Origin: a virus
Lineage: Duplodnaviria; Heunggongvirae; Uroviricota; Caudoviricetes
Reading direction: 5' to 3' (one strand)
IMG/VR virus record: IMGVR_UViG_2660238511_000011
Length of the DNA: 16,143 bases
Position numbers and translations under genes: made by a program. Below, in pieces: positions 2,258-16,143 of this stretch (its first letter is position 1; each line of letters begins with the position of its first letter). The notes under the pieces are model-generated. The model was not told the DNA's origin and ran no database searches. It was given only the letters and a program-made list of their open reading frames with translations.

Positions 2258-2539
2258 TTACCGCCGTAACCGCTCCGGCTTCTTCCAGTGGTACGTGATT
2301 TTCTCCTTCTCCCGATACAGTTCAACGCGGCGATTGTAGGCCAGCATTTCCAGAACGCGGATCCGTATGTCGCGCATATCCGCATCATTAAGCTGGATAC
2401 CATCACGGCGCATCACCTCAGCAACAACACGCGCATAATTTTCGGCTGTCACGCTGTCCGGCTGCGTGGTCTGTTCGTCAGCCTGCTGGCTGATTCCAGA
2501 GACGCGGCGGATTAATCGCAGTATTTCGGCTTCTGTCAT
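2258..2539 (-). CDS. Hypothetical protein, 93 aa, last gene of the packaging operon
   Basis: ORF begins 13 nt after the terL stop, with a GAGGT-like ribosome-binding site about 8 nt upstream of the ATG. No family recognised. Confidence 0.5.
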   Translation of the reverse strand: MTEAEILRLIRRVSGISQQADEQTTQPDSVTAENYARVVAEVMRRDGIQLNDADMRDIRIRVLEMLAYNRRVELYREKEKITYHWKKPERLRR

Positions 2540-2552
2540 GCTGCTGACCTCA

Positions 2553-4214
2553 TTACACCCCGCTAAATTCTTCCAGTTTCTGGCGGTGGCTGTCGCTTAT
2601 ATCAAAAGCAAAATCCTCATGCTCTGCCTGGAATGTACCAAACGCCATCAGCGCCGCTACGCTCGGGTCTATCTTGTTCGGTGATTTTTTCTTGTTCGGC
2701 TTGATATTGGCGTTCGCGTCACTCTGCATCACGACGTTACTCATCGACCAGGACAACACCGGATCGCCACGATGCACAATCACCCTGCGGTTAACAAAAA
2801 CTTCGAACGATTTCGCCGCCGGACTGAATCTGAGGTAGGTTTGCGGGAACGGCTCCACCTCAAAACCAGCCCCCTGTAATTGCGTCCTGAGATGCGTGGC
2901 GTTCCACGTATCAAAGCCCACCAGCCTGATATTAAATTTCTCCGCATCCTGCATGATGTCATCTCTGATCCGGTCGTAATCAATGCAGTCACCTGGCGTT
3001 GTGCGTATCCAGCCCGCTTTAGCCCACTGGCGATAGACAGCGCGGTTTTTATTGGCGGGGTTCTGTAGCTGGAACTCCGGCAGATAATGACGGGAAATCA
3101 GCATAATGGTTTTACCGACCGGAAAGGCATAGCATACGCTGGAAATATCGCTGGTTGATGATAAGTCCAGCCCCGCGTAACACTCCTGACCGTGTAAATC
3201 TTCCTCCGTGAACGTTCCGGCACACTCAGCCCATGCACCATTACCCATCCACGGGGTAGTCCCCTGACACCAGATATTAAATCGCTTTGTCATCATCTCC
3301 ACCCACTGCGACGGAATACCCCGCGCTTTCTGGATGGTTGAGGCCAGTTTTTCACGATCCACGGAAACATCAATATTAGGGTTCGCCTTTATCCACATCG
3401 CCGGATCATCAACCTCGTTTTCGTCGTCCAGTTCGTAAATCAGTACAAAAATTGAATCGTTGACCTCTTCGCCGTCCAGGATCTGGCAGCAATAATCATA
3501 GTGCTGTTTACAGGCTGAAACGACGTTACTGCCCGATGTGGTAATGGCAAATAACAGCCCTTCGGGACGTGCGCCCATCCCCAGCTCAAGCGCGGAATAA
3601 ACGCCGTTATCGGGGTGTAGGTGGTATTCGTCCACGATGGAAAGACTGGGGTTTGTCCCCTCGATGGTTGCCGCTTTTGCTGCCAGCGGCTTTAACAGGC
3701 TGTTGCTTTTCGGGTGTATCACCTTATGCGCCTGAATATTCACCCGCCTGCGTAACGGTCGGGATAAAAGGCACATCTGACGCGCATTATCAAACACGAT
3801 CCGCGCCTGGTCACGGCTCACCGCTGCGGTGTAGATATCCTGCTGACCGTTCTCCATAATCAGAAACCAGTTAGCCAGAATCGCGGCGGTCGTGGATTTC
3901 GCATTTTTGCGCGGCACTTCGATAAAGGCGCTCGTGTATTTGCGCCGTCCGGTGGCCTTAACCTTAAAGCCGAGGATGCACGCAAAGGCGAACTGCTGCC
4001 ACGGCTCCAGCTCAATGGGTCTGCCACGCATCGGTCCTTTTACGTGCGGGCACACCCTGGAAAAGGCAATAAACCGCTCCACAACCTCACGATCGAACGT
4101 GTAAAGGGGGCTTTTAAGGTCCGAAAAGTACCGTTTAACAGCCTGTTTTAACCGTTTACAGGCCGGAATTTTGCCCGTTTTTACGTCTTCTGCGTACTTA
4201 TTCCAGGCGGTCAA
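2553..4214 (-). CDS. terL: Terminase large subunit (Terminase_1-type ATPase/nuclease), 553 aa
   Basis: Length, Walker-A-like segment VPRKNAKST and overall resemblance to phage large terminases. Its start overlaps the terS 3-prime end. Confidence 0.9.
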   Translation of the reverse strand: MTAWNKYAEDVKTGKIPACKRLKQAVKRYFSDLKSPLYTFDREVVERFIAFSRVCPHVKGPMRGRPIELEPWQQFAFACILGFKVKATGRRKYTSAFIEVPRKNAKSTTAAILANWFLIMENGQQDIYTAAVSRDQARIVFDNARQMCLLSRPLRRRVNIQAHKVIHPKSNSLLKPLAAKAATIEGTNPSLSIVDEYHLHPDNGVYSALELGMGARPEGLLFAITTSGSNVVSACKQHYDYCCQILDGEEVNDSIFVLIYELDDENEVDDPAMWIKANPNIDVSVDREKLASTIQKARGIPSQWVEMMTKRFNIWCQGTTPWMGNGAWAECAGTFTEEDLHGQECYAGLDLSSTSDISSVCYAFPVGKTIMLISRHYLPEFQLQNPANKNRAVYRQWAKAGWIRTTPGDCIDYDRIRDDIMQDAEKFNIRLVGFDTWNATHLRTQLQGAGFEVEPFPQTYLRFSPAAKSFEVFVNRRVIVHRGDPVLSWSMSNVVMQSDANANIKPNKKKSPNKIDPSVAALMAFGTFQAEHEDFAFDISDSHRQKLEEFSGV

Positions 4215-4816
4215 GCTCGTCCTCTTCTTCTGTTTCCGGTGGATTTTTACGGCGGCTTATCGGGTCAAAACCGAGCAAGGAGGCCATTTTTATCATCACT
4301 CTTTCAGCGTCGGATTTTGCGCTTAATGCGGGGTTTCTGCTCTCGCCGCCCTGACTGTTAACAATGCTGAACCCGCGCGCCGCAAGGTCTGCAACGGCTT
4401 TCCGGTAAATGGAGTAGTTGACGCAATACAGTTCCAGATTGCTCCAGTCGGCGGGGGTCAGGTCTCCCCGTTCCGCAAGCTGCCGCGATTTTTCCCGCCA
4501 CTGCTTCACGGCGATATCATCCAGGTAGGCGGGGGCGGGGTTGTCCTGAAAAAGCCCCCCNNNNNNNNNNNNNNNNNNNNNNNNNNNNNNNNNNNNNNNN
4601 NNNNNNNNNNNNNNNNNNNNNNNNNNNNNNNNNNNNNNNNNNNNNNNNNNNNNNNNNNNNNNNNNNNNNNNNNNNNNNNNNNNNGGTTAATCGCTTCGCT
4701 GTGATGCGTTCTGCGCGTCCTGACGCTTTATCTTTATGCCCTGTTTCCTGTGTCTTCCATGCGTCACGCTGCCTTATAAGTCCACGGATAAGGCGGTTTT
4801 GTTCCCGCTCATTCAT
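4198..4816 (-). CDS. terS: Terminase small subunit, P27-family-like, interrupted by an assembly gap of 124 N
   Basis: The C-terminal part (4198..4560) reads PAPAYLDDIAVKQWREK...LELYCVNYSIYRKAVADL...GGESRNPALSAKSDAERVMIKMASLLGFDPISRRK, typical of P27-family TerS. The reading frame is open up to the gap edge. An N-terminal fragment (ATG at 4816, MNEREQNRL...) runs in frame into the other gap edge and overlaps the HNH stop. Confidence 0.6.
4561..4684. other. Assembly gap (124 N) inside terS
   Basis: Run of N characters. Confidence 0.99.
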
Positions 4817-5249
4817 CAGCGTCATACATCCAGTTATTGCGGTTAGCAGCCCGTTCTTCCTCTTCACGAAATCCACCTGCGGCACGCTTGCTTTTTGTTG
4901 CCGGATCAAGCCATTTCGTTTTCTGGTTATGACACGCCTGGCACAATGGTTGATGGTTCCATTCGGGCCAGAAGAGAACATCATCACCGCCATTAATCGG
5001 GATAATGTGATCCACCACCACGGCGGGCGTATATATCCCCTTCTCAAGGCATCGCACGCATAACGGGTTTTTACTCAGATACATGGCGCGGTATTTGTCC
5101 CACTGTCTGGAATATCCACGCGCGCGGCGGTGTCCTCGTCTGGCATCCTCTGCACGCCATGCCGCCCGCCTGTGCTCCTCACACTTGCCGGATTTAACGC
5201 GCCTGTTACAGCCTGGTTCTGTGCATCGTCTTAATGGTTGCCACGGCAT
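4809..5249 (-). CDS. HNH endonuclease, phage packaging-associated, 146 aa
   Basis: Cys pairs and the DHIIP...N...CxxCHNxKT motif. It sits directly upstream of terS/terL, and its start overlaps the upstream stop as ATGA. Confidence 0.85.
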   Translation of the reverse strand: MPWQPLRRCTEPGCNRRVKSGKCEEHRRAAWRAEDARRGHRRARGYSRQWDKYRAMYLSKNPLCVRCLEKGIYTPAVVVDHIIPINGGDDVLFWPEWNHQPLCQACHNQKTKWLDPATKSKRAAGGFREEEERAANRNNWMYDADE

Positions 5250-5545
5250 CAGTACCCCCCCACATCACGGTAAGCCGTCCAGAGTGCGCCTATCGTCATG
5301 GGTACGCGTGTTTTTGCGTTATCCGCGACAATCTGGCGATTTTCATACAGGTGAGCGATAAACATCATGCAGCCAATCTTTATGGCTGGCGTGAACGCCA
5401 GCCCGTCATCAAAGCGCCTGCCTATGTGTATCTGGCACGCCTCAAGCGATGCGGCAATGTATCCGCTGATTAACTGGTCTTCATCGTCGCCATCGATGCG
5501 GCAATGGAGTTTCACTTCTTCCAGGGTGATAAGTTCTTCTGTCAT
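5249..5545 (-). CDS. Head-tail connector protein, gp6-like, 98 aa
   Basis: N-terminal LTLEEVKLHCRIDGDDEDQLI signature of gp6-like connector proteins. The gene is translationally coupled on both sides. Confidence 0.75.
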   Translation of the reverse strand: MTEELITLEEVKLHCRIDGDDEDQLISGYIAASLEACQIHIGRRFDDGLAFTPAIKIGCMMFIAHLYENRQIVADNAKTRVPMTIGALWTAYRDVGGY

Positions 5546-5943
5546 TTTTCCGCGCCCTCACGACAAAGAATTTCAAGGCGTGTCCTGGCGGCATCCGGCA
5601 GCGGCTGCCCGATGATATTCAGTACACGCCCCGCCAGCGNNNNNNNNNNNNNNNNNNNNNNCAGCGGCTGCCCGATGATATTCAGTACACGCCCCGCCAG
5701 CGGCCCCGTACTGACCTTTATCCGGCTGGTGGCGTTGATGTCCTTCCGGTACCGTATCCAGATCCTTACGGTACCAATCGCCAGCTCTGCGCCCGATGAA
5801 ATGGCCTCCTTGCTGCTGACCATGTTCACGCTTGCCCAGAGTGTGTGACCGTCCTCCCACGTTTCGAGTATTTCGCCGGTTATATCCCTGGTCTGTTTCA
5901 GGGTCTGAATCGTTATCCTGTCACGCAGTCGCCCTATGTTCAT
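5542..5943 (-). CDS. Head-tail adaptor / head-closure protein (SPP1 gp16-like); contains a 22-N gap flanked by a duplicated 41 bp
   Basis: MNIGRLRDRITIQ...WASV...VRIWIRYRKDI pattern. The likely start is the ATG at 5943 overlapping the portal stop. The ORF track start at 5985 is probably an upstream extension. Confidence 0.7.
   Translation of the reverse strand: MNIGRLRDRITIQTLKQTRDITGEILETWEDGHTLWASVNMVSSKEAISSGAELAIGTVRIWIRYRKDINATSRIKVSTGPLAGRVLNIIGQPLXXXXXXXXLAGRVLNIIGQPLPDAARTRLEILCREGAEK
5640..5661. other. Assembly gap (22 N) flanked by a perfect 41-bp direct repeat (5599-5639 and 5662-5702)
   Basis: N-run; the identical sequence cagcggctgcccgatgatattcagtacacgccccgccagcg lies on both sides. 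Confidence 0.95.
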
Positions 5944-7151
5944 TCCGGTTTTTCTCCCTCGCTGATTTTTACTTCCTGTTTCCATGCCTGGCTGAACTCA
6001 TCACCACCATCACGCGGTGACAGCCCTTCACGTTCGCGGGCTTCGTTCGGACACATAACGTCGGATTTTATGCCGCGCTCATAGGTGGCAAAGCGTTCGC
6101 CAGGTGTGGCCCGTAACAGGTCCGCGCTGTCAAACTCCACCTGATACCGGATACCAGGTACAGGCGAGGCCACCAGCAAGGCGTTTTTTATCTGCTGCTC
6201 AAAGTTCGCCAGCCACGGGCGCATCGTCATGGTGAGAAATGCGCGGCTTGCCTCGCTGAAGTTGCTGTAGGTGCTGTTGCTGTATTCCTGCAAAAAAATC
6301 GGCGAGACGTTGAACATTCGGGCGATGTCTTCAATGGTGAAGCGACGGGAGGCCAGCCATTCGGCATCCTGATTACTCATGCCCAGCTGCTGATAGCTCA
6401 TCCCCCCTTCAAGGATGGGCGTTTTTCCGGCGTTTCTGGCCCCTTTGTAGCGTTCCAGTGCGGCTAATGCCTGTTTGCCCTTCACGCCGTCCAGCCATTC
6501 GCCTGACGTGATAACCCCTGCCGCCATCATGCCATCACGCATCACGCTCGCGCCGTGGCGTTGTTGGGCCAGCCCAAGCCCCAGCGATTCGCGGCAGATG
6601 GTTACAGGTGAGCGCCCCATAAAACCGTCATCCGTGGAGTAACGAAGGTGGAGAACCTCCCACGGTAAATAGTTGCGGGTGTTTCCGGTGTAGGCGTCAG
6701 TGATGCAGTAGCGCCAGTTATGATCACCTGTCTGATCCACGTTCACCGACTGCGGCGGGTAAGGATGTAAAGCCGCCGGAAAACCATCACGCCCCCACTG
6801 AATAACCGCATAAGCATTACCACTTAACAGGCAGTAGCGGATCATCATTCGCTTAAACTGGTAGGGTGTCTGCCACGCGTTCGGGCGCTCGTTGAGGATG
6901 TGATCGACCGGATGAGAATCAAGCCATTCGCGGGCCTCCTTCCCCTTCTCATTGCGTACCAGGTACAGGTAACACGGCATGGTAGCCACCGCGTCAGAGA
7001 TGACCGTGACGGCGTTCATGACGGCGGGGAGTGATTCCGCTGTCCCAGATGATACGTACTCACCCGCCCCCGTGTTCGATGTGCCGGCCAGCGCCATAAA
7101 TTCATCAAGCGTCATGCTGCGCTGCTCTTTTTTTCGTCTGAAAGGCCACAT
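5940..7151 (-). CDS. Portal protein, HK97 family, 403 aa
   Basis: Size and conserved portal core (ILEGGMSYQQLGMSNQDAEWLASRRFTIEDIARMFNVSP). Confidence 0.9.
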   Translation of the reverse strand: MWPFRRKKEQRSMTLDEFMALAGTSNTGAGEYVSSGTAESLPAVMNAVTVISDAVATMPCYLYLVRNEKGKEAREWLDSHPVDHILNERPNAWQTPYQFKRMMIRYCLLSGNAYAVIQWGRDGFPAALHPYPPQSVNVDQTGDHNWRYCITDAYTGNTRNYLPWEVLHLRYSTDDGFMGRSPVTICRESLGLGLAQQRHGASVMRDGMMAAGVITSGEWLDGVKGKQALAALERYKGARNAGKTPILEGGMSYQQLGMSNQDAEWLASRRFTIEDIARMFNVSPIFLQEYSNSTYSNFSEASRAFLTMTMRPWLANFEQQIKNALLVASPVPGIRYQVEFDSADLLRATPGERFATYERGIKSDVMCPNEAREREGLSPRDGGDEFSQAWKQEVKISEGEKPE

Positions 7152-7152
7152 A

Positions 7153-7725
7153 TCACACCCCCGCTAAATCCGCCCACCAGCGGCGATTATCCGCACGCGG
7201 CATTTTTTCGGGGTGCTGCTCATACAGGGAACGGCGGGCCAGCTCCACGCCGGAATCGGGGTAAGCCGGTACCGATGTAACGGTAATTTCGTACAGTTCC
7301 GCCACCAGCACGGTGCGCACGCATGGATCTGTTGTGGTATCCCATACATCCTTACGGGAGCGAAAGCCAAAGCTCATCCCCGAGATGTCCCCACGCTTAA
7401 CCAGTTCGATAACGTCGCGCCCTGTACTGGGATCCGGTGGGGTCAGTTCAAAGCGTAACCCTGTTTCGTCCTCTTCCAGTTTCAGCGTGCCGGAACGGGT
7501 GCGCCCCAGTAACATGCTGTGGTCATGCTCATACAGGCCGCGAACGTCATTACCCGCCGCAAGCCATTCAGTAAACGCCCCCCGCTGGAATTTTTCGTAA
7601 AACTCACCCCATAACAGTTCTGAAAGCTTATCCCAGCGAACAACGTAGCCCGTCAGCGTACCGGCTCCGCTGGTGGTGATTTCCGATGACCGGATTTCCA
7701 TACTCTTCATAATTTTTTCACCCAT
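7153..7725 (-). CDS. Prohead maturation protease, HK97 family, 190 aa
   Basis: Size, position between the capsid and portal genes, and a conserved His-containing segment (YEHDHS). Confidence 0.85.
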   Translation of the reverse strand: MGEKIMKSMEIRSSEITTSGAGTLTGYVVRWDKLSELLWGEFYEKFQRGAFTEWLAAGNDVRGLYEHDHSMLLGRTRSGTLKLEEDETGLRFELTPPDPSTGRDVIELVKRGDISGMSFGFRSRKDVWDTTTDPCVRTVLVAELYEITVTSVPAYPDSGVELARRSLYEQHPEKMPRADNRRWWADLAGV

Positions 7726-7734
7726 AAAACACTA

Positions 7735-7754
7735 AAGGGGCTTTTTAGCCCCTT
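7735..7754 (-). terminator. Intergenic hairpin (8-bp stem AAGGGGCT/AGCCCCTT) 10 nt after the capsid stop; candidate partial terminator
   Basis: Perfect 8-bp stem with a 4-nt loop, followed on the minus strand by a moderately U-rich stretch before the protease start. Confidence 0.4.
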
Positions 7755-7764
7755 CTGTATGCTG

Positions 7765-8094
7765 TTAATCGTCGTCTTCCGGCAGTGCCAGAATCTTGAT
7801 CGCGTTCGAATCCACCACGCCACCGCCTAAATATTTTTGCGTGAAAATTTTGATGAATCCTGGTTCTGTCAGGTTGTCCGGTCTGGTGCGAACACCTGTT
7901 TCGTGATCAACAATGTAGTAACCGCGTTTGAAGTCACCCAGGGCAATAACGTTATCAGGCATAAACTCCAGATATTCGACCGGAAGGCCCAGCAACGTAT
8001 CAGGATCACCCGCCTGTAAACGGTCGCGCCAGATATAATCACCGTTCGCGTTCTTCACCTTCTGAAGTTTTGCCGCCGTCGTGGAGTTAACCAC
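7765..8094 (-). CDS. Major capsid protein (HK97 fold), C-terminal fragment downstream of an in-frame TGA
   Basis: Same frame as ORF 8095..8970. Translation VNSTTAAKLQKV...TLLGLPVEYLEFMPD continues the capsid protein. Confidence 0.8.
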   Translation of the reverse strand: MVNSTTAAKLQKVKNANGDYIWRDRLQAGDPDTLLGLPVEYLEFMPDNVIALGDFKRGYYIVDHETGVRTRPDNLTEPGFIKIFTQKYLGGGVVDSNAIKILALPEDDD

Positions 8095-14204: not shown

Positions 14205-14350
14205 ATGCCTGAAAAAACCCAATTTTGTGGTTTTCCAGTTTCACCAGGGCGAACGAATCCCCGCCCACGTTCTGGCGTATATTCAATCTTCATGGTTATA
14301 GCTCTGTGTTCAGATGATTGATGTGTGGCGGCTGCGTGCCGCCAGCGTGA

Positions 14351-14539
14351 TTAATGAACTGCCTTGCAGCTATCCTTCCAGGCCAGAACCTCGGATAAAG
14401 ACCAGCCAACGGAACGACCGCCAAGTTTACGACGTGATGGGAATTGTCCGGCCTTTTCCAGGCGGTAGCGGCATGAGCGGCTAAGGCCTGTTAGCTTTTC
14501 GCATTCTTTTTCACGTATAAACCGATCAGTGCTTAACAC
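14351..14539 (-). CDS. alpA: AlpA-family excisionase / transcriptional regulator, 62 aa, GTG start
   Basis: IREKECEKLTGLSRSCRYRLEKAGQFP...GRSVGWSLSEVLAWK matches the AlpA/Vis helix-turn-helix pattern. A strong AGGGGG ribosome-binding site lies 4 nt upstream. It sits next to the integrase. Confidence 0.85.
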   Translation of the reverse strand: MLSTDRFIREKECEKLTGLSRSCRYRLEKAGQFPSRRKLGGRSVGWSLSEVLAWKDSCKAVH

Positions 14540-14700
14540 TATTGCCCCCTTTCGTTTCTTAAAGAGTTATTTCGTGTTCTATTGCGTTGGGATGTGTCTG
14601 ATTGTGTCAGGATGATTCAGAGTTGGCAAATGTTGAGGCCGTATGGTTTACAGAAAGAGGAATAATCAGGATAAAATCCTTTAAATTCATGTTAATACAA

Positions 14701-14730
14701 AGGCATAAAATATTGTTTCATGCCTTTTTT
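14701..14730. terminator. Hairpin AGGCAT-13 nt-ATGCCT with T-run; candidate terminator between int and alpA
   Basis: 6-bp stem followed by TTTTT on the plus strand and by a weaker U-rich tract on the minus strand. It may terminate the int transcript or a plus-strand small RNA. Confidence 0.35.
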
Positions 14731-14820
14731 CTCGCTATTTAAAGAGTGATTCGCTAGTGTATAAAAAATCAGTAACACATTAAAAATCAGCTACTTATAA
14801 ATCTGCACACTTTTTCACCT

Positions 14821-14870
14821 CTTGTTCGTAGTTGTTCCGCTTTGTTGCTCATTGTTGCACGTTGTATCTG
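14821..14870 (-). promoter_or_regulatory. Copy C of the motif (ACAACGTGCAACAA) with 10-bp-phased AACAA repeats, minus-strand orientation, just after the int stop
   Basis: Forward-strand TTGTT at 14823, 14832, 14842 and 14852, and TTGT at 14862. The reverse complement of 14852-14865 is ACAACGTGCAACAA, 13 of 14 identical to copies A and B. Confidence 0.45.
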
Positions 14871-14913
14871 TTCGCATATCCAGTATGCGCATACTGAAAA
14901 AACACGAAAAAAA

Positions 14914-16143
14914 TTATTTTCTTCTGGCTACTGGTAGCGTGGTTACGTTTTCATGTGTTCCCGCCAGTATCCCTAACCGCTCCGTCCACATATCCAGCGC
15001 ATTGCGTTTAGCATCCAGATAACGGGAATGATTATAAACTCGCTGCATTCCTGGCATCTGGTGGCCTGTAAGCTGCTCCACGACGTGAGGATCCACGCCT
15101 AAATCGTTCAGCATCGTTGTAAAGGTGCGCCGGATGTCATGTAGTGACCAGTGAGGGTGATTTAGCCTCCTGTGCGCTAATCTGCCGTACTGCGACACGC
15201 TTGTTTCCTGTTTCACTTCCCCCAGCAATAAGCCCGTGTGCCTGTTCTGCTCCACCAGCTGCGTGACGAACGGCAGTATTGCTTCCGGTATGGGCCGGAA
15301 TATTGCCACCTTCGTTTTGCTGTGTTCTTTCGGCACGGTCCAGAGCATTTCGGTAAAATCCCACTCGCTGATCTCCGATAACCTCAGTTCTACCGTCCGG
15401 CATCCGAACACAATCAGGAGGCGGATTAACGCGATGTAGTAGGGGGAGAATATTTTTTTGTCCAGTGCCTGCAATAATTCGCCCAGTTCTTTGGTGCTTA
15501 AGACACGCTCGCTTATATCCGGTTTTTTCCCAACGTCCGCCACACTCATATCATCAAGAACGTTGCTGATTGCATAGCGCCGCCTCCGGCAGAACTTAAG
15601 CGCCTGTTTGCACGTCTGTAGCAAGAATCCGGCAGTAACAGGCGTTCGCTTTGCCACCTGGTCAAAACAGGCCAGCCAGTGCCGTAGCTCGCATTTATCC
15701 AGCGGCATAGCACCAATGTGCTGTATTACGTGATTATTAAGGCGCTTTTTCAGGGCGGCATAATCCACGCGGTTTTCCTTTGCGTACGACTCAAGCCAGT
15801 AGGTGAGCGCATCGCCAACCGTTACCGGCTTTAACGCTTCCTGTACGGTGTAATTAAGCTCATGACGTGGATTTTTCCCCTCTGCCAGCCATGCGCGACA
15901 CTGGGCGGCTTTTTCCCTGGCTGATTTCAGGTTCAGATCAGGATAATTTCCCAGCTTAATGCGTTCCGGTGGTGCCCCCCTTCCCGTTCCGGCCCTGTAA
16001 GTGAAATACCAGGTTAAAAGGCCACTGGTTGAATGCCTGACGCTCAGGTTTCCACCGTCATTAAGAAAGGCTGTTTTTTGGGCGGGTGTGCCGTTGATTT
16101 TCCTCAGCTGTGTATCGCTCAGTTTGTTAAGTGCTCTGCTCAT
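14914..16143 (-). CDS. int: Tyrosine recombinase / integrase, P4 family, 409 aa; start codon is the last 3 bases of the window
   Basis: N-terminal arm-binding-type domain (LSDTQLRKI...GGNLSVRHSTSGLLTWYFTYR...), C-terminal catalytic region with HDIRRT and the tyrosine-containing RVYNHSRYL. Confidence 0.9.
   Translation of the reverse strand: MSRALNKLSDTQLRKINGTPAQKTAFLNDGGNLSVRHSTSGLLTWYFTYRAGTGRGAPPERIKLGNYPDLNLKSAREKAAQCRAWLAEGKNPRHELNYTVQEALKPVTVGDALTYWLESYAKENRVDYAALKKRLNNHVIQHIGAMPLDKCELRHWLACFDQVAKRTPVTAGFLLQTCKQALKFCRRRRYAISNVLDDMSVADVGKKPDISERVLSTKELGELLQALDKKIFSPYYIALIRLLIVFGCRTVELRLSEISEWDFTEMLWTVPKEHSKTKVAIFRPIPEAILPFVTQLVEQNRHTGLLLGEVKQETSVSQYGRLAHRRLNHPHWSLHDIRRTFTTMLNDLGVDPHVVEQLTGHQMPGMQRVYNHSRYLDAKRNALDMWTERLGILAGTHENVTTLPVARRK

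Follow-up and report, generated by a model that had tools for sequence, protein, structure and literature searches.

The 16,143-nucleotide stretch of DNA analysed here, which we call the window, very probably carries an integrated capsid-forming PICI (cf-PICI) of the EcCIEDL933 type in the form of a decayed allele, which runs from position 1460 onward between phoQ and roxA, with its genes on the minus strand. Judged by its likeness to EcCIEDL933, the prototype cf-PICI of Alqurainy et al. (10.1101/2022.09.08.507074), the element is an allele of that prototype and thus an ordinary member of an already known kind; the family and its prototype at the phoQ/roxA locus have been in print since 2022. 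The sequence-only reading had already taken the element for a capsid-forming PICI, and the gene set, the att bounds and the likeness to EcCIEDL933 all support it in this. The stretch should be annotated as an EcCIEDL933-type cf-PICI whose capsid gene is disrupted, rather than as a cryptic prophage or an unknown island.

Boundaries and gene content of the element

The boundaries were set by comparing the occupied site with the empty site of E. coli K-12, which reads AAATATGCCC and in which a single ATATGCCC lies in the 75-bp phoQ-roxA spacer. In the window the att core overlaps the stop codon of phoQ, and the start of the element, previously placed at 2258, was moved to this core. The right end lies outside the window and was read from copies that differ from it by 2–3 substitutions over 10.5 kb (L005 and L006 have a few 1-base indels as well). 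In loci L001 and L003–L006 the same 10-mer stands 172–181 nt beyond the integrase ATG, equivalent to window positions 16315–16324, and the near-identical copies (at least 99.8%) continue after this 10-bp att repeat with roxA, pepT and potABCD. Past the integrase, roxA, pepT and potA are found in L004–L006 (at least 99.9% identical), in Shigella flexneri SFBU1023 (L003) and in E. coli RM6927 and EDL933, followed by the rest of the pot operon in those loci that extend further, and no tail or lysis genes were found beyond the integrase in any of them. Thus, where the sequence-only reading had proposed to look beyond 16143 for adjoining tail or lysis genes, siblings and relatives have host genes, and the att direct repeat it had suggested searching for brackets exactly this integrase and head module. 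TRACTACACC sites are also in excess (five found, 0.5 expected): the tandem pair near the left boundary is mirrored by two copies at the other end, just upstream of int.

The features are, in window coordinates:

1460–1469, no strand: left att core AAATATGTCC, where the element begins; shares bases with the phoQ stop codon (1459–1461)
1540–1561, plus: tandem pair of TRACTACACC repeats, probably bound by the integrase as arm-type sites
2258–2539, minus: 93-aa protein with no assigned function (phrog_1561), last gene of the packaging operon; 93.5% identical to its EDL933 counterpart
2553–4214, minus: large terminase TerL, intact, 553 aa (TerL_ATPase and TerL_nuclease)
4198–4524 (4509 with the GTG start), minus: small terminase TerS, 5'-truncated (Terminase_4, P27 family)
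4528–4541, no strand: junction of the 98-bp deletion, at a 7-bp CCCCGCC microhomology
4561–4684, no strand: run of 124 N, corresponding to 61 real bases in siblings
4685–4825, minus: visible 5' part of a 60-aa ORF between HNH and terS (gene calls in siblings)
4809–5249, minus: HNH endonuclease (Pfam)
5249–5545, minus: gp6-like head-tail connector/adaptor (Phage_connect_1)
5542–5943, minus: head closure/completion protein (Phage_HCP), 112 aa in siblings; window copy broken by an artefact
5640–5661, no strand: run of 22 N flanked by a 41-bp duplication, a scaffold join that interrupts the head closure gene
5940–7151, minus: portal protein, intact, 403 aa (Pfam, E = 3.6e-88)
7153–7725, minus: HK97-type prohead serine protease (Peptidase_S78)
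7765–8922, minus: major capsid protein gene, HK97 fold (Pfam), a pseudogene in fragments of 275 and 109 aa
9223–10340, minus: accessory genes phrog_1957, phrog_994, phrog_27268 and phrog_1231 (PHROGs, no assigned function)
10388–10615, no strand: replication origin, immediately past the 3' end of the primase gene; its ten GGTAGAYAG iterons occur in either orientation
10629–12377, minus: primase-helicase, 582 aa (D5_N, DUF5906, Pox_D5)
12374–12673, minus: DUF4222 protein (Pfam)
12679–12912, minus: 77-aa protein (phrog_2196, PHROGs)
12982–13390, minus: phrog_2512-like gene, frameshifted, split in the poly-G tract 13137–13144
13338–13538, minus: Icd-like small protein (NF033153), 95% identical to EDL933
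14351–14539, minus: AlpA-family regulator (Pfam, E = 5e-18)
14914–16143, minus: tyrosine integrase of the P4 type (Arm-DNA-bind_3 and Phage_integrase), intact, 409 aa; the window ends with its start codon triplet

This inventory bears out the earlier gene list: every class named there (int, alpA, primase, and the head and packaging genes) was recovered on the minus strand at about the expected place, by Pfam matches that exceed the curated cut-offs. The integrase, AlpA and the primase-replicase, expected of a cf-PICI at its integrase-proximal end, are found there, all three above the curated Pfam cut-offs. Pfam also recognises 8/8 of the head and packaging markers (capsid, prohead protease, portal, adaptor, connector, HNH, TerS and TerL), and all 11 functions on the SatelliteFinder list of core cfPICI markers (PMC10085698) are present in canonical order, in a module that is not intact since its capsid gene is a pseudogene and its terS is 5'-deleted. 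The "full" capsid and terminase set described from sequence thus holds for the presence of the marker genes and fails for their integrity. The iteron origin described by the primase was likewise recovered, its ten sites following right after the primase stop. The window has 13 GGTAGAYAG-like sites in all, these ten among them, against a chance expectation of 3.0; in 200 shuffles the count always stayed below 13. Finally, as had been claimed, tail and lysis genes, which count as forbidden components of a cf-PICI, are absent: Pfam, PHROGs, NCBIfam and PADLOC gave no match to tail, holin or endolysin families for any ORF of the window.

A cf-PICI is expected to span about 10–15 kb, to be bounded by att repeats and to occupy the site of the family; the element measures ~14.7 kb between its att copies, with the two assembly artefacts subtracted, and its site is that of EcCIEDL933. 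Two other classes were considered and rejected. A complete temperate HK97-like prophage has tail, lysis and lysogeny-control modules adjoining the head module in a genome of ~40 kb, and does not agree with ~14.7 kb between att sites lacking tail and lysis genes. A classical PICI that forms no capsid is excluded by the element's own portal, connector and head-closure genes, which are exclusion markers for PICI in SatelliteFinder.

Lesions in the capsid and terS genes

The capsid gene has an in-frame TGA at 8095–8097 where relatives have TGG (Trp276). All seven near-identical siblings that were read share this TGA, and at least two of them are complete chromosomes (CP026765.1 and CP058589.1); the truncated 275-aa product is recorded in 1,821 assembly blocks. 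The exact 81-mer containing it occurs in none of the 349 complete E. coli genomes that have this capsid segment.

Alignment with EDL933 and RM6927, together with a reading of the window itself, reveals a 98-bp deletion with its junction at 4534/4535. It takes the native ATG of terS, the ribosome-binding site and ~80 nt upstream, which are presumed to be the terminase-binding side of cos, cos being placed solely by where one linear database record (LR881103.1) begins and ends. TerS retains a complete Terminase_4 domain (profile positions 3–97 of 98), and the remaining possible starts are a CTG at 4524 and a GTG at 4509, from either of which TerS could be translated. One sibling (L007) was aligned base by base over the deletion, and L007–L010 are all gap-free with the window across the junction. 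A third lesion is the frameshift in the phrog_2512-like gene, whose poly-G tract 13137–13144 has eight G in the window and seven where the gene is intact.

Both N runs are assembly artefacts. In siblings the first covers the 3' end of the 60-aa ORF and a conserved GGGGTGGGGGG motif, and three mismatches to siblings lie within 25 nt of this gap.

Many public assemblies, which form a near-clonal set, have the same capsid stop and terS deletion; among titled records, one from Shigella flexneri comes closest (2 mismatches in 377 bases). Shigella is a lineage known for gene decay, and the lesion pattern fits the vertical inheritance of a dead satellite in a decaying lineage, the link to Shigella being drawn from that one record. 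It is a small point that a family of satellites known for its wide horizontal spread can also leave behind, in such a lineage, dead copies that are passed on vertically. A detector that relies on markers would nonetheless rate a copy of this kind as a complete "Type A" element. The decayed copy raises no new question on satellite function.

Predicted consequences and alternative readings

In intact members of the family, as the prototype papers show for EcCIEDL933, a helper prophage turns on alpA, and the island excises via its integrase and replicates from its own origin with its own primase-helicase. Its capsid protein, protease and portal then build small T=4 HK97-fold capsids; its HNH, TerS and TerL cut cos DNA and package it into them, and its head-closure and connector proteins dock tails of the helper phage. 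HNH is a terminase accessory protein in HK97-type cos packaging. Helper induction, small capsids and helper tails were shown for the prototype alone, whereas for the allele in the window we predict that capsid production and transfer fail. Because the capsid reading frame ends at codon 276 and terS lacks its start, its ribosome-binding site and the upstream DNA, this copy is predicted neither to build capsids nor to package or transfer DNA without outside help, and it is probably immobile. Excision and replication may still be possible, given that the integrase, AlpA, the origin and the replicase are intact. AlpA is the activator required for induction in Gram-negative PICIs (10.1101/2022.09.08.507074).

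It is improbable that the copy is nevertheless a fully functional cf-PICI, which makes its own small capsids and needs tails alone from a helper. The 11 markers in canonical order would fit such an element, as would the integrase, AlpA, portal, protease, HNH and TerL, which are full length and 97–100% identical to the prototype, but both the TGA at capsid codon 276 and the loss of the terS start region argue against it. In EcCIEDL933, mutating each gene of the packaging module, including capsid and terS, abolished transfer and left replication unaffected; gene 1792 is the exception, since its mutation severely reduces transfer without abolishing it (10.1101/2022.09.08.507074). On the basis of gene order, the 60-aa ORF between HNH and terS is probably the counterpart of gene 1792. 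Alternatively, the capsid stop and the other lesions might be draft sequencing or assembly errors in an element that is really intact. The window does come from a scaffolded draft, with its two N runs, a duplicated 41-bp contig end and three mismatches near the first gap, and sequencing errors can produce frameshifts like the one in the poly-G tract. Independent assembly of the seven siblings that share the TGA, the number of blocks with the truncated product, and the recurrence of the 98-bp deletion in L007 and its gap-free surroundings in L007–L010, however, make such an origin very unlikely.

Also very unlikely is an ordinary HK97-like prophage remnant that has lost its tail and lysis genes and was never a satellite. 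Its head and packaging families are indeed common to HK97-like phages, and the window copy does show decay. Yet the same att-bounded layout of 14.7–15.5 kb recurs at this site in EDL933, RM6927 and the Shigella-like siblings, each time flanked by host genes immediately beyond the two att copies, and the P4-type integrase, AlpA, D5-type primase and iterons make up the regulatory and replication half of a PICI or P4-type element. Moreover, the head module has no close match among 50,697 phage records, and the prototype EcCIEDL933 was shown by experiment to be a helper-dependent satellite (10.1101/2022.09.08.507074).

The decayed cf-PICI thus remains the preferred reading. In enterobacteria the UGA stop is leaky, and its decoding by near-cognate tRNA-Trp would put back the wild-type residue, so that a little full-length capsid protein may be made. 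We see only a slim chance that this capsid-null, terS-deleted allele persists in well over a thousand assemblies by still doing something, and not just by clonal inheritance; it might interfere with helpers as an inducible replicating element, be complemented by another cf-PICI acting in trans, or yield a trickle of wild-type capsid protein by UGA-to-Trp read-through.

Comparison with EcCIEDL933 and other relatives

EcCIEDL933, from E. coli O157:H7 EDL933, shares the roxA-phoQ site, the gene order and the att flanks with the window element, and both lack tail and lysis genes. Across the nine-gene packaging module, protein identities are 93.5–100% (~97–100% for the eight with named functions): 98.2–98.5% for the capsid, 97.4% for the protease, 97.8% for the portal, 96.9% for the connector, 99.3% for HNH, 100% over 103 aa for TerS and 98.7% for TerL. 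For the integrase the identity is 99.8% and for AlpA 98.4%. PDB 9GYI, which He et al. state to be the EcCIEDL933 capsid (10.1101/2025.02.11.637232), matches the capsid protein of the element at 98.4% identity over 385 aa. The same study found that the capsid substitutions K290D, E319K and R345D abolished transfer; all three positions lie downstream of codon 276.

Besides the lesions, namely the stop at W276, the 98-bp deletion in the terS/cos region and the poly-G frameshift, all of which belong to the window copy, the differences from the prototype lie in the replication and accessory genes alone. The replicase is a 582-aa D5_N/DUF5906 protein here and a 710-aa DUF927 protein in EcCIEDL933, and just the N-terminal 225 aa align (53%). 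The accessory block at 9223–10340 lacks the SSB and PerC genes that EDL933 and RM6927 carry there, and the spacing from alpA to the primase differs from EcCIEDL933. The best E. coli match is the cf-PICI of RM6927 (NZ_CP074742.1; 96% identity over 89% of the window), which shares the site, the primase family and the DUF4222 gene; its capsid (TGG) and terS are intact, and a longer series of small genes separates its alpA from its primase gene. A cf-PICI at the same site is also found in ~55 other complete E. coli genomes.

The HK97-like cos phages share the HK97-fold capsid, which also matches the RcGTA capsid (PDB 6TB9, E = 1e-46), as well as the S78 protease, the portal, the gp6-like connector and the HNH-assisted terminase. 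They differ in module order, which here runs from capsid through portal, connectors, HNH and TerS to TerL; moreover, the element lacks tail, lysis and lysogeny-switch genes and is about one third the size of a phage genome. A search of 50,697 phage records for a close DNA match to the head module found none; it gave three hits, the best being 78% over TerL alone. One of the three is a 16.5-kb cf-PICI-like record.

With classical Gram-negative PICIs (EcCICFT073 and EcCIED1a) and P4-like satellites, the element has in common the P4-type integrase, AlpA-dependent induction, its own primase-replicase and origin, small size and helper dependence. Those satellites, however, reuse the capsid proteins of the helper and lack a portal, TerL, adaptor and connector of their own, the "forbidden" PICI markers of SatelliteFinder (PMC10085698), whereas the window element has all four.

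Gene content of the island

The window opens with an intact phoQ, and all plausible genes beyond it are encoded on the minus strand. Pfam searches support, above curated cut-offs, all of the functions that an earlier sequence-only reading had assigned to the integrase, AlpA, primase, head and packaging genes.

Genes of the window. All minus-strand genes listed are above the curated Pfam cut-off. Percentages give the identity to the counterpart in E. coli O157:H7 EDL933, which carries EcCIEDL933, the prototype capsid-forming PICI (cf-PICI).
1-1461, plus: phoQ
14914-16143, minus: P4-type tyrosine integrase; 99.8%
14351-14539, minus: AlpA; 98.4%
10629-12377, minus: D5_N/DUF5906/Pox_D5 primase-helicase
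7765-8922, minus: HK97-family major capsid protein; 98.2-98.5%
7153-7725, minus: S78 prohead protease; 97.4%
5940-7151, minus: portal; 97.8%
5542-5943, minus: head-closure protein
5249-5545, minus: gp6-like connector; 96.9%
4809-5249, minus: HNH endonuclease; 99.3%
4198-4524, minus: P27-family small terminase (TerS); 100% over the retained 103 aa
2553-4214, minus: large terminase (TerL); 98.7%

The iteron origin claimed by the same reading is real. The window contains 13 GGTAGAYAG-like sites compared to about 3 expected by chance, a number reached in none of 200 shuffles, and 10 of the 13 are clustered in 10388-10615, directly past the primase stop codon. The remaining small ORFs have no match to tail, holin, endolysin or defence families in PHROGs, NCBIfam and PADLOC, and PADLOC assigns none of the small accessory ORFs to a defence system. 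They correspond to phage families of unknown function, except for one Icd-like and one DUF4222 protein. A 248-aa ORF rich in Cys, Ser and Arg (13547-14293, minus) takes up most of the interval from alpA to the icd-like gene, a stretch of about 700 nt that is 89% conserved, and its EDL933 counterpart is labeled a hypothetical protein in RefSeq. We rejected this ORF as a real gene, since it has no family match and since its substitutions relative to two relatives (10/20/18 and 10/19/16) show no third-codon-position excess. Rfam searches with E-values up to 0.1 detect no RNA family across the window, not even in this 700-nt stretch, and a promoter scan finds sites no more numerous than in shuffled sequence.

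Two further features were seen in non-coding sequence. Two identical copies of a terminator-like hairpin, AGCCGGAGCAATCCGGCT with a T run behind it, lie on the minus strand of the accessory region, at 9186-9203 and 9549-9566, 363 nt apart, one after a 74-aa gene and the other after a 53-aa gene. Moreover, about 170 nt in the non-coding tail of the island (2053-2223), which may be a small duplication or insertion, are missing from E. coli RM6927 (NZ_CP074742.1), which has a cf-PICI at the same site, and EDL933 has diverged over the same stretch. It is flanked by the near-identical palindromes GCGCATTTTTGCGCT (2038-2052) and GCGCAATTTTGCGCT (2224-2238).

Boundaries and attachment sites

In E. 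coli K-12 the spacer between phoQ and roxA is only 75 bp long. The window begins to diverge from K-12 right after ...GAATAAATATGTCC, and in RM6927 host sequence picks up again after ...GATAAAATATGTCC, 172-181 nt upstream of the integrase ATG. These two points therefore define the att core as the 10-mer AAATATGTCC, or as 14 bases with two mismatches permitted. The left copy, at 1460-1469, overlaps the phoQ stop codon and is the true start of the element, about 790 bp earlier than position 2258, where the sequence-only reading had placed it. Since neither tRNA nor tmRNA genes are found in the window by ARAGORN, the att site lies outside any tRNA gene.

The right att copy is located beyond the window and was recovered from near-identical copies. 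Identical copies of the integrase protein are recorded in 698 assembly blocks, and of TerL in 8,909. We read seven sibling loci (L004-L010), which are 99.8-100% identical to the window over all overlapping sequence. Moreover, species-representative genomes were scanned for an exact match to the last 64 bases of the window, which recovered one close copy, in Shigella flexneri SFBU1023 (L003; 2 mismatches in 377 bases). In L003 and in L004-L006 the right core is found at window-equivalent 16315-16324, and the direct repeat proposed as a check of the boundaries is thus present. Beyond it, these four loci continue with roxA, pepT, potA and then other pot genes, and no tail or lysis genes follow the integrase, in line with the proposed absence of such genes contiguous with the element. 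Corrected for two assembly artefacts, the element is about 14.7 kb long. Finally, paired TAACTACACC-type repeats lie inside both island ends, at 1540-1561 and just upstream of the integrase gene in L003-L006 and in a relative (L001). The 58 bp that contain them are 81% identical from one end to the other, and the repeats are likely arm-type integrase-binding sites.

Lesions in the capsid and terminase genes

The genes of the full capsid and terminase set postulated from the sequence are present, but two of them are not intact: the capsid gene carries an in-frame TGA and terS has a 5' deletion. The TGA is found at 8095-8097, where RM6927 has TGG and where PDB 9GYI, the capsid of the prototype EcCIEDL933 (He et al., 10.1101/2025.02.11.637232), has Trp (Trp276). 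When read through the stop, the capsid protein is 98.4% identical to 9GYI over all 385 residues. The TGA is shared by seven of seven siblings, and the 275-aa capsid fragment is recorded in 1,821 assembly blocks. Of the 349 complete E. coli genomes having the capsid segment, none contains the exact 81-mer with the TGA. Thus, the TGA is not a sequencing error but an inherited nonsense mutation specific to this lineage. Selenocysteine insertion or programmed recoding was rejected as an explanation, since the relatives all have Trp (TGG) and a single G-to-A transition accounts for the change.

Compared to EDL933 and RM6927, a segment of 98 bp between two CCCCGCC repeats is missing from the window and its siblings. 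With it, terS has lost its ATG, its first codons and its ribosome-binding site, along with about 80 nt of the intergenic DNA upstream. In the best eight E. coli genomes listed, the junction aligns as two pieces 98 bp apart, and these genomes are therefore undeleted.

The head module has no close match in ordinary phages among 50,697 phage records. The sole small record matching it is LR881103.1 ('Escherichia phage vB_KppS-Ant', 1-16548), a 16.5 kb sequence entered as a phage derived from an induced prophage. No Pfam family matches its 765-aa gene, which is labeled 'tail length tape measure protein'. The record is probably a packaged satellite genome, because it has the cf-PICI gene order starting with terS. 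This linear record stops at ...GGTTTTCAGGAC and begins again 22 nt ahead of terS, and the motif GGTTTTCAGGAC is conserved just upstream of the 98-bp deletion. Together, these ends and this conservation suggest, short of proof, that cos lies in the GGTTTTCAGGAC/terS region and that the window copy no longer has the terminase-binding side of it.

A G8 tract (13137-13144) breaks a 121-aa phrog_2512-like gene (12982-13390, minus) into two ORFs. L004 also has G8, and L005 and L006 have G7 with the gene intact; the difference could reflect slipped-strand variation, or else a sequencing error in the homopolymer. The runs of N, in turn, are both assembly artefacts. The 22-N run (5640-5661) lies between two copies of 41 bp that is single-copy in the siblings, and duplication and Ns together lengthen the head-closure gene by 63 nt. 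The 124-N run (4561-4684) takes the place of 61 real bases. Within 25 nt of the first gap, the window has a cluster of three mismatches to the siblings, as would be expected of a contig end of low quality.

Relation to the EcCIEDL933 prototype

Helper prophages, e.g. HK106, induce the prototype via alpA (10.1101/2022.09.08.507074). The island excises and replicates autonomously, its protease-processed capsid protein forms T=4 capsids of about 47 nm with room for about 15 kb, its own HNH, TerS and TerL package the cos DNA, and its adaptor and connector proteins decide which helper tails are attached (10.1101/2022.09.08.507074; 10.1101/2025.02.11.637232). Single mutations in the packaging-module genes abolish transfer and leave replication intact, the exception being gene 1792, whose mutation only severely reduces transfer (10.1101/2022.09.08.507074). 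Moreover, transfer is lost when K290, E319 or R345 of the capsid protein is changed (10.1101/2025.02.11.637232), and all three residues are beyond codon 276. In the window copy, integrase, AlpA, origin and replicase would still allow the island to be induced, to excise and to replicate. Its lesions predict, however, that capsids are not assembled and DNA is not packaged, which would leave it immobile. Two caveats apply: a low level of UGA read-through would put Trp back into the capsid protein, and TerS may be translated from a GTG or CTG start.

The phoQ region of EDL933 contains the same island at the same site and in the same orientation (roxA, integrase ... TerL, 93-aa gene, phoQ). The replicases differ, however: EDL933 has a 710-aa DUF927 protein, whereas the 582-aa protein of the window is of the D5 type, and the N-terminus alone aligns (53%). 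The accessory genes are SSB and PerC in EDL933 and four unknown small genes in the window. These differences are a mosaic typical of such islands. RM6927, the closest complete E. coli genome, is 96% identical over 89% of the window, a level that no other complete E. coli genome exceeds, and it shares both replicase type and insertion site with the window. The capsid type is present in about 350 of 5,426 complete E. coli genomes. The cf-PICI family, with 11 marker genes and without tails and holins, has been published already (PMC10085698; 10.1101/2022.09.08.507074), and so has its presence in Shigella flexneri. What the sequence-only reading observed is thus for the most part correct, and its assignment to the capsid-forming PICIs was right, as the element is att-bounded, lacks tail and lysis genes and encodes EcCIEDL933-like proteins. 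The element is a degraded allele of the published prototype at the published locus.
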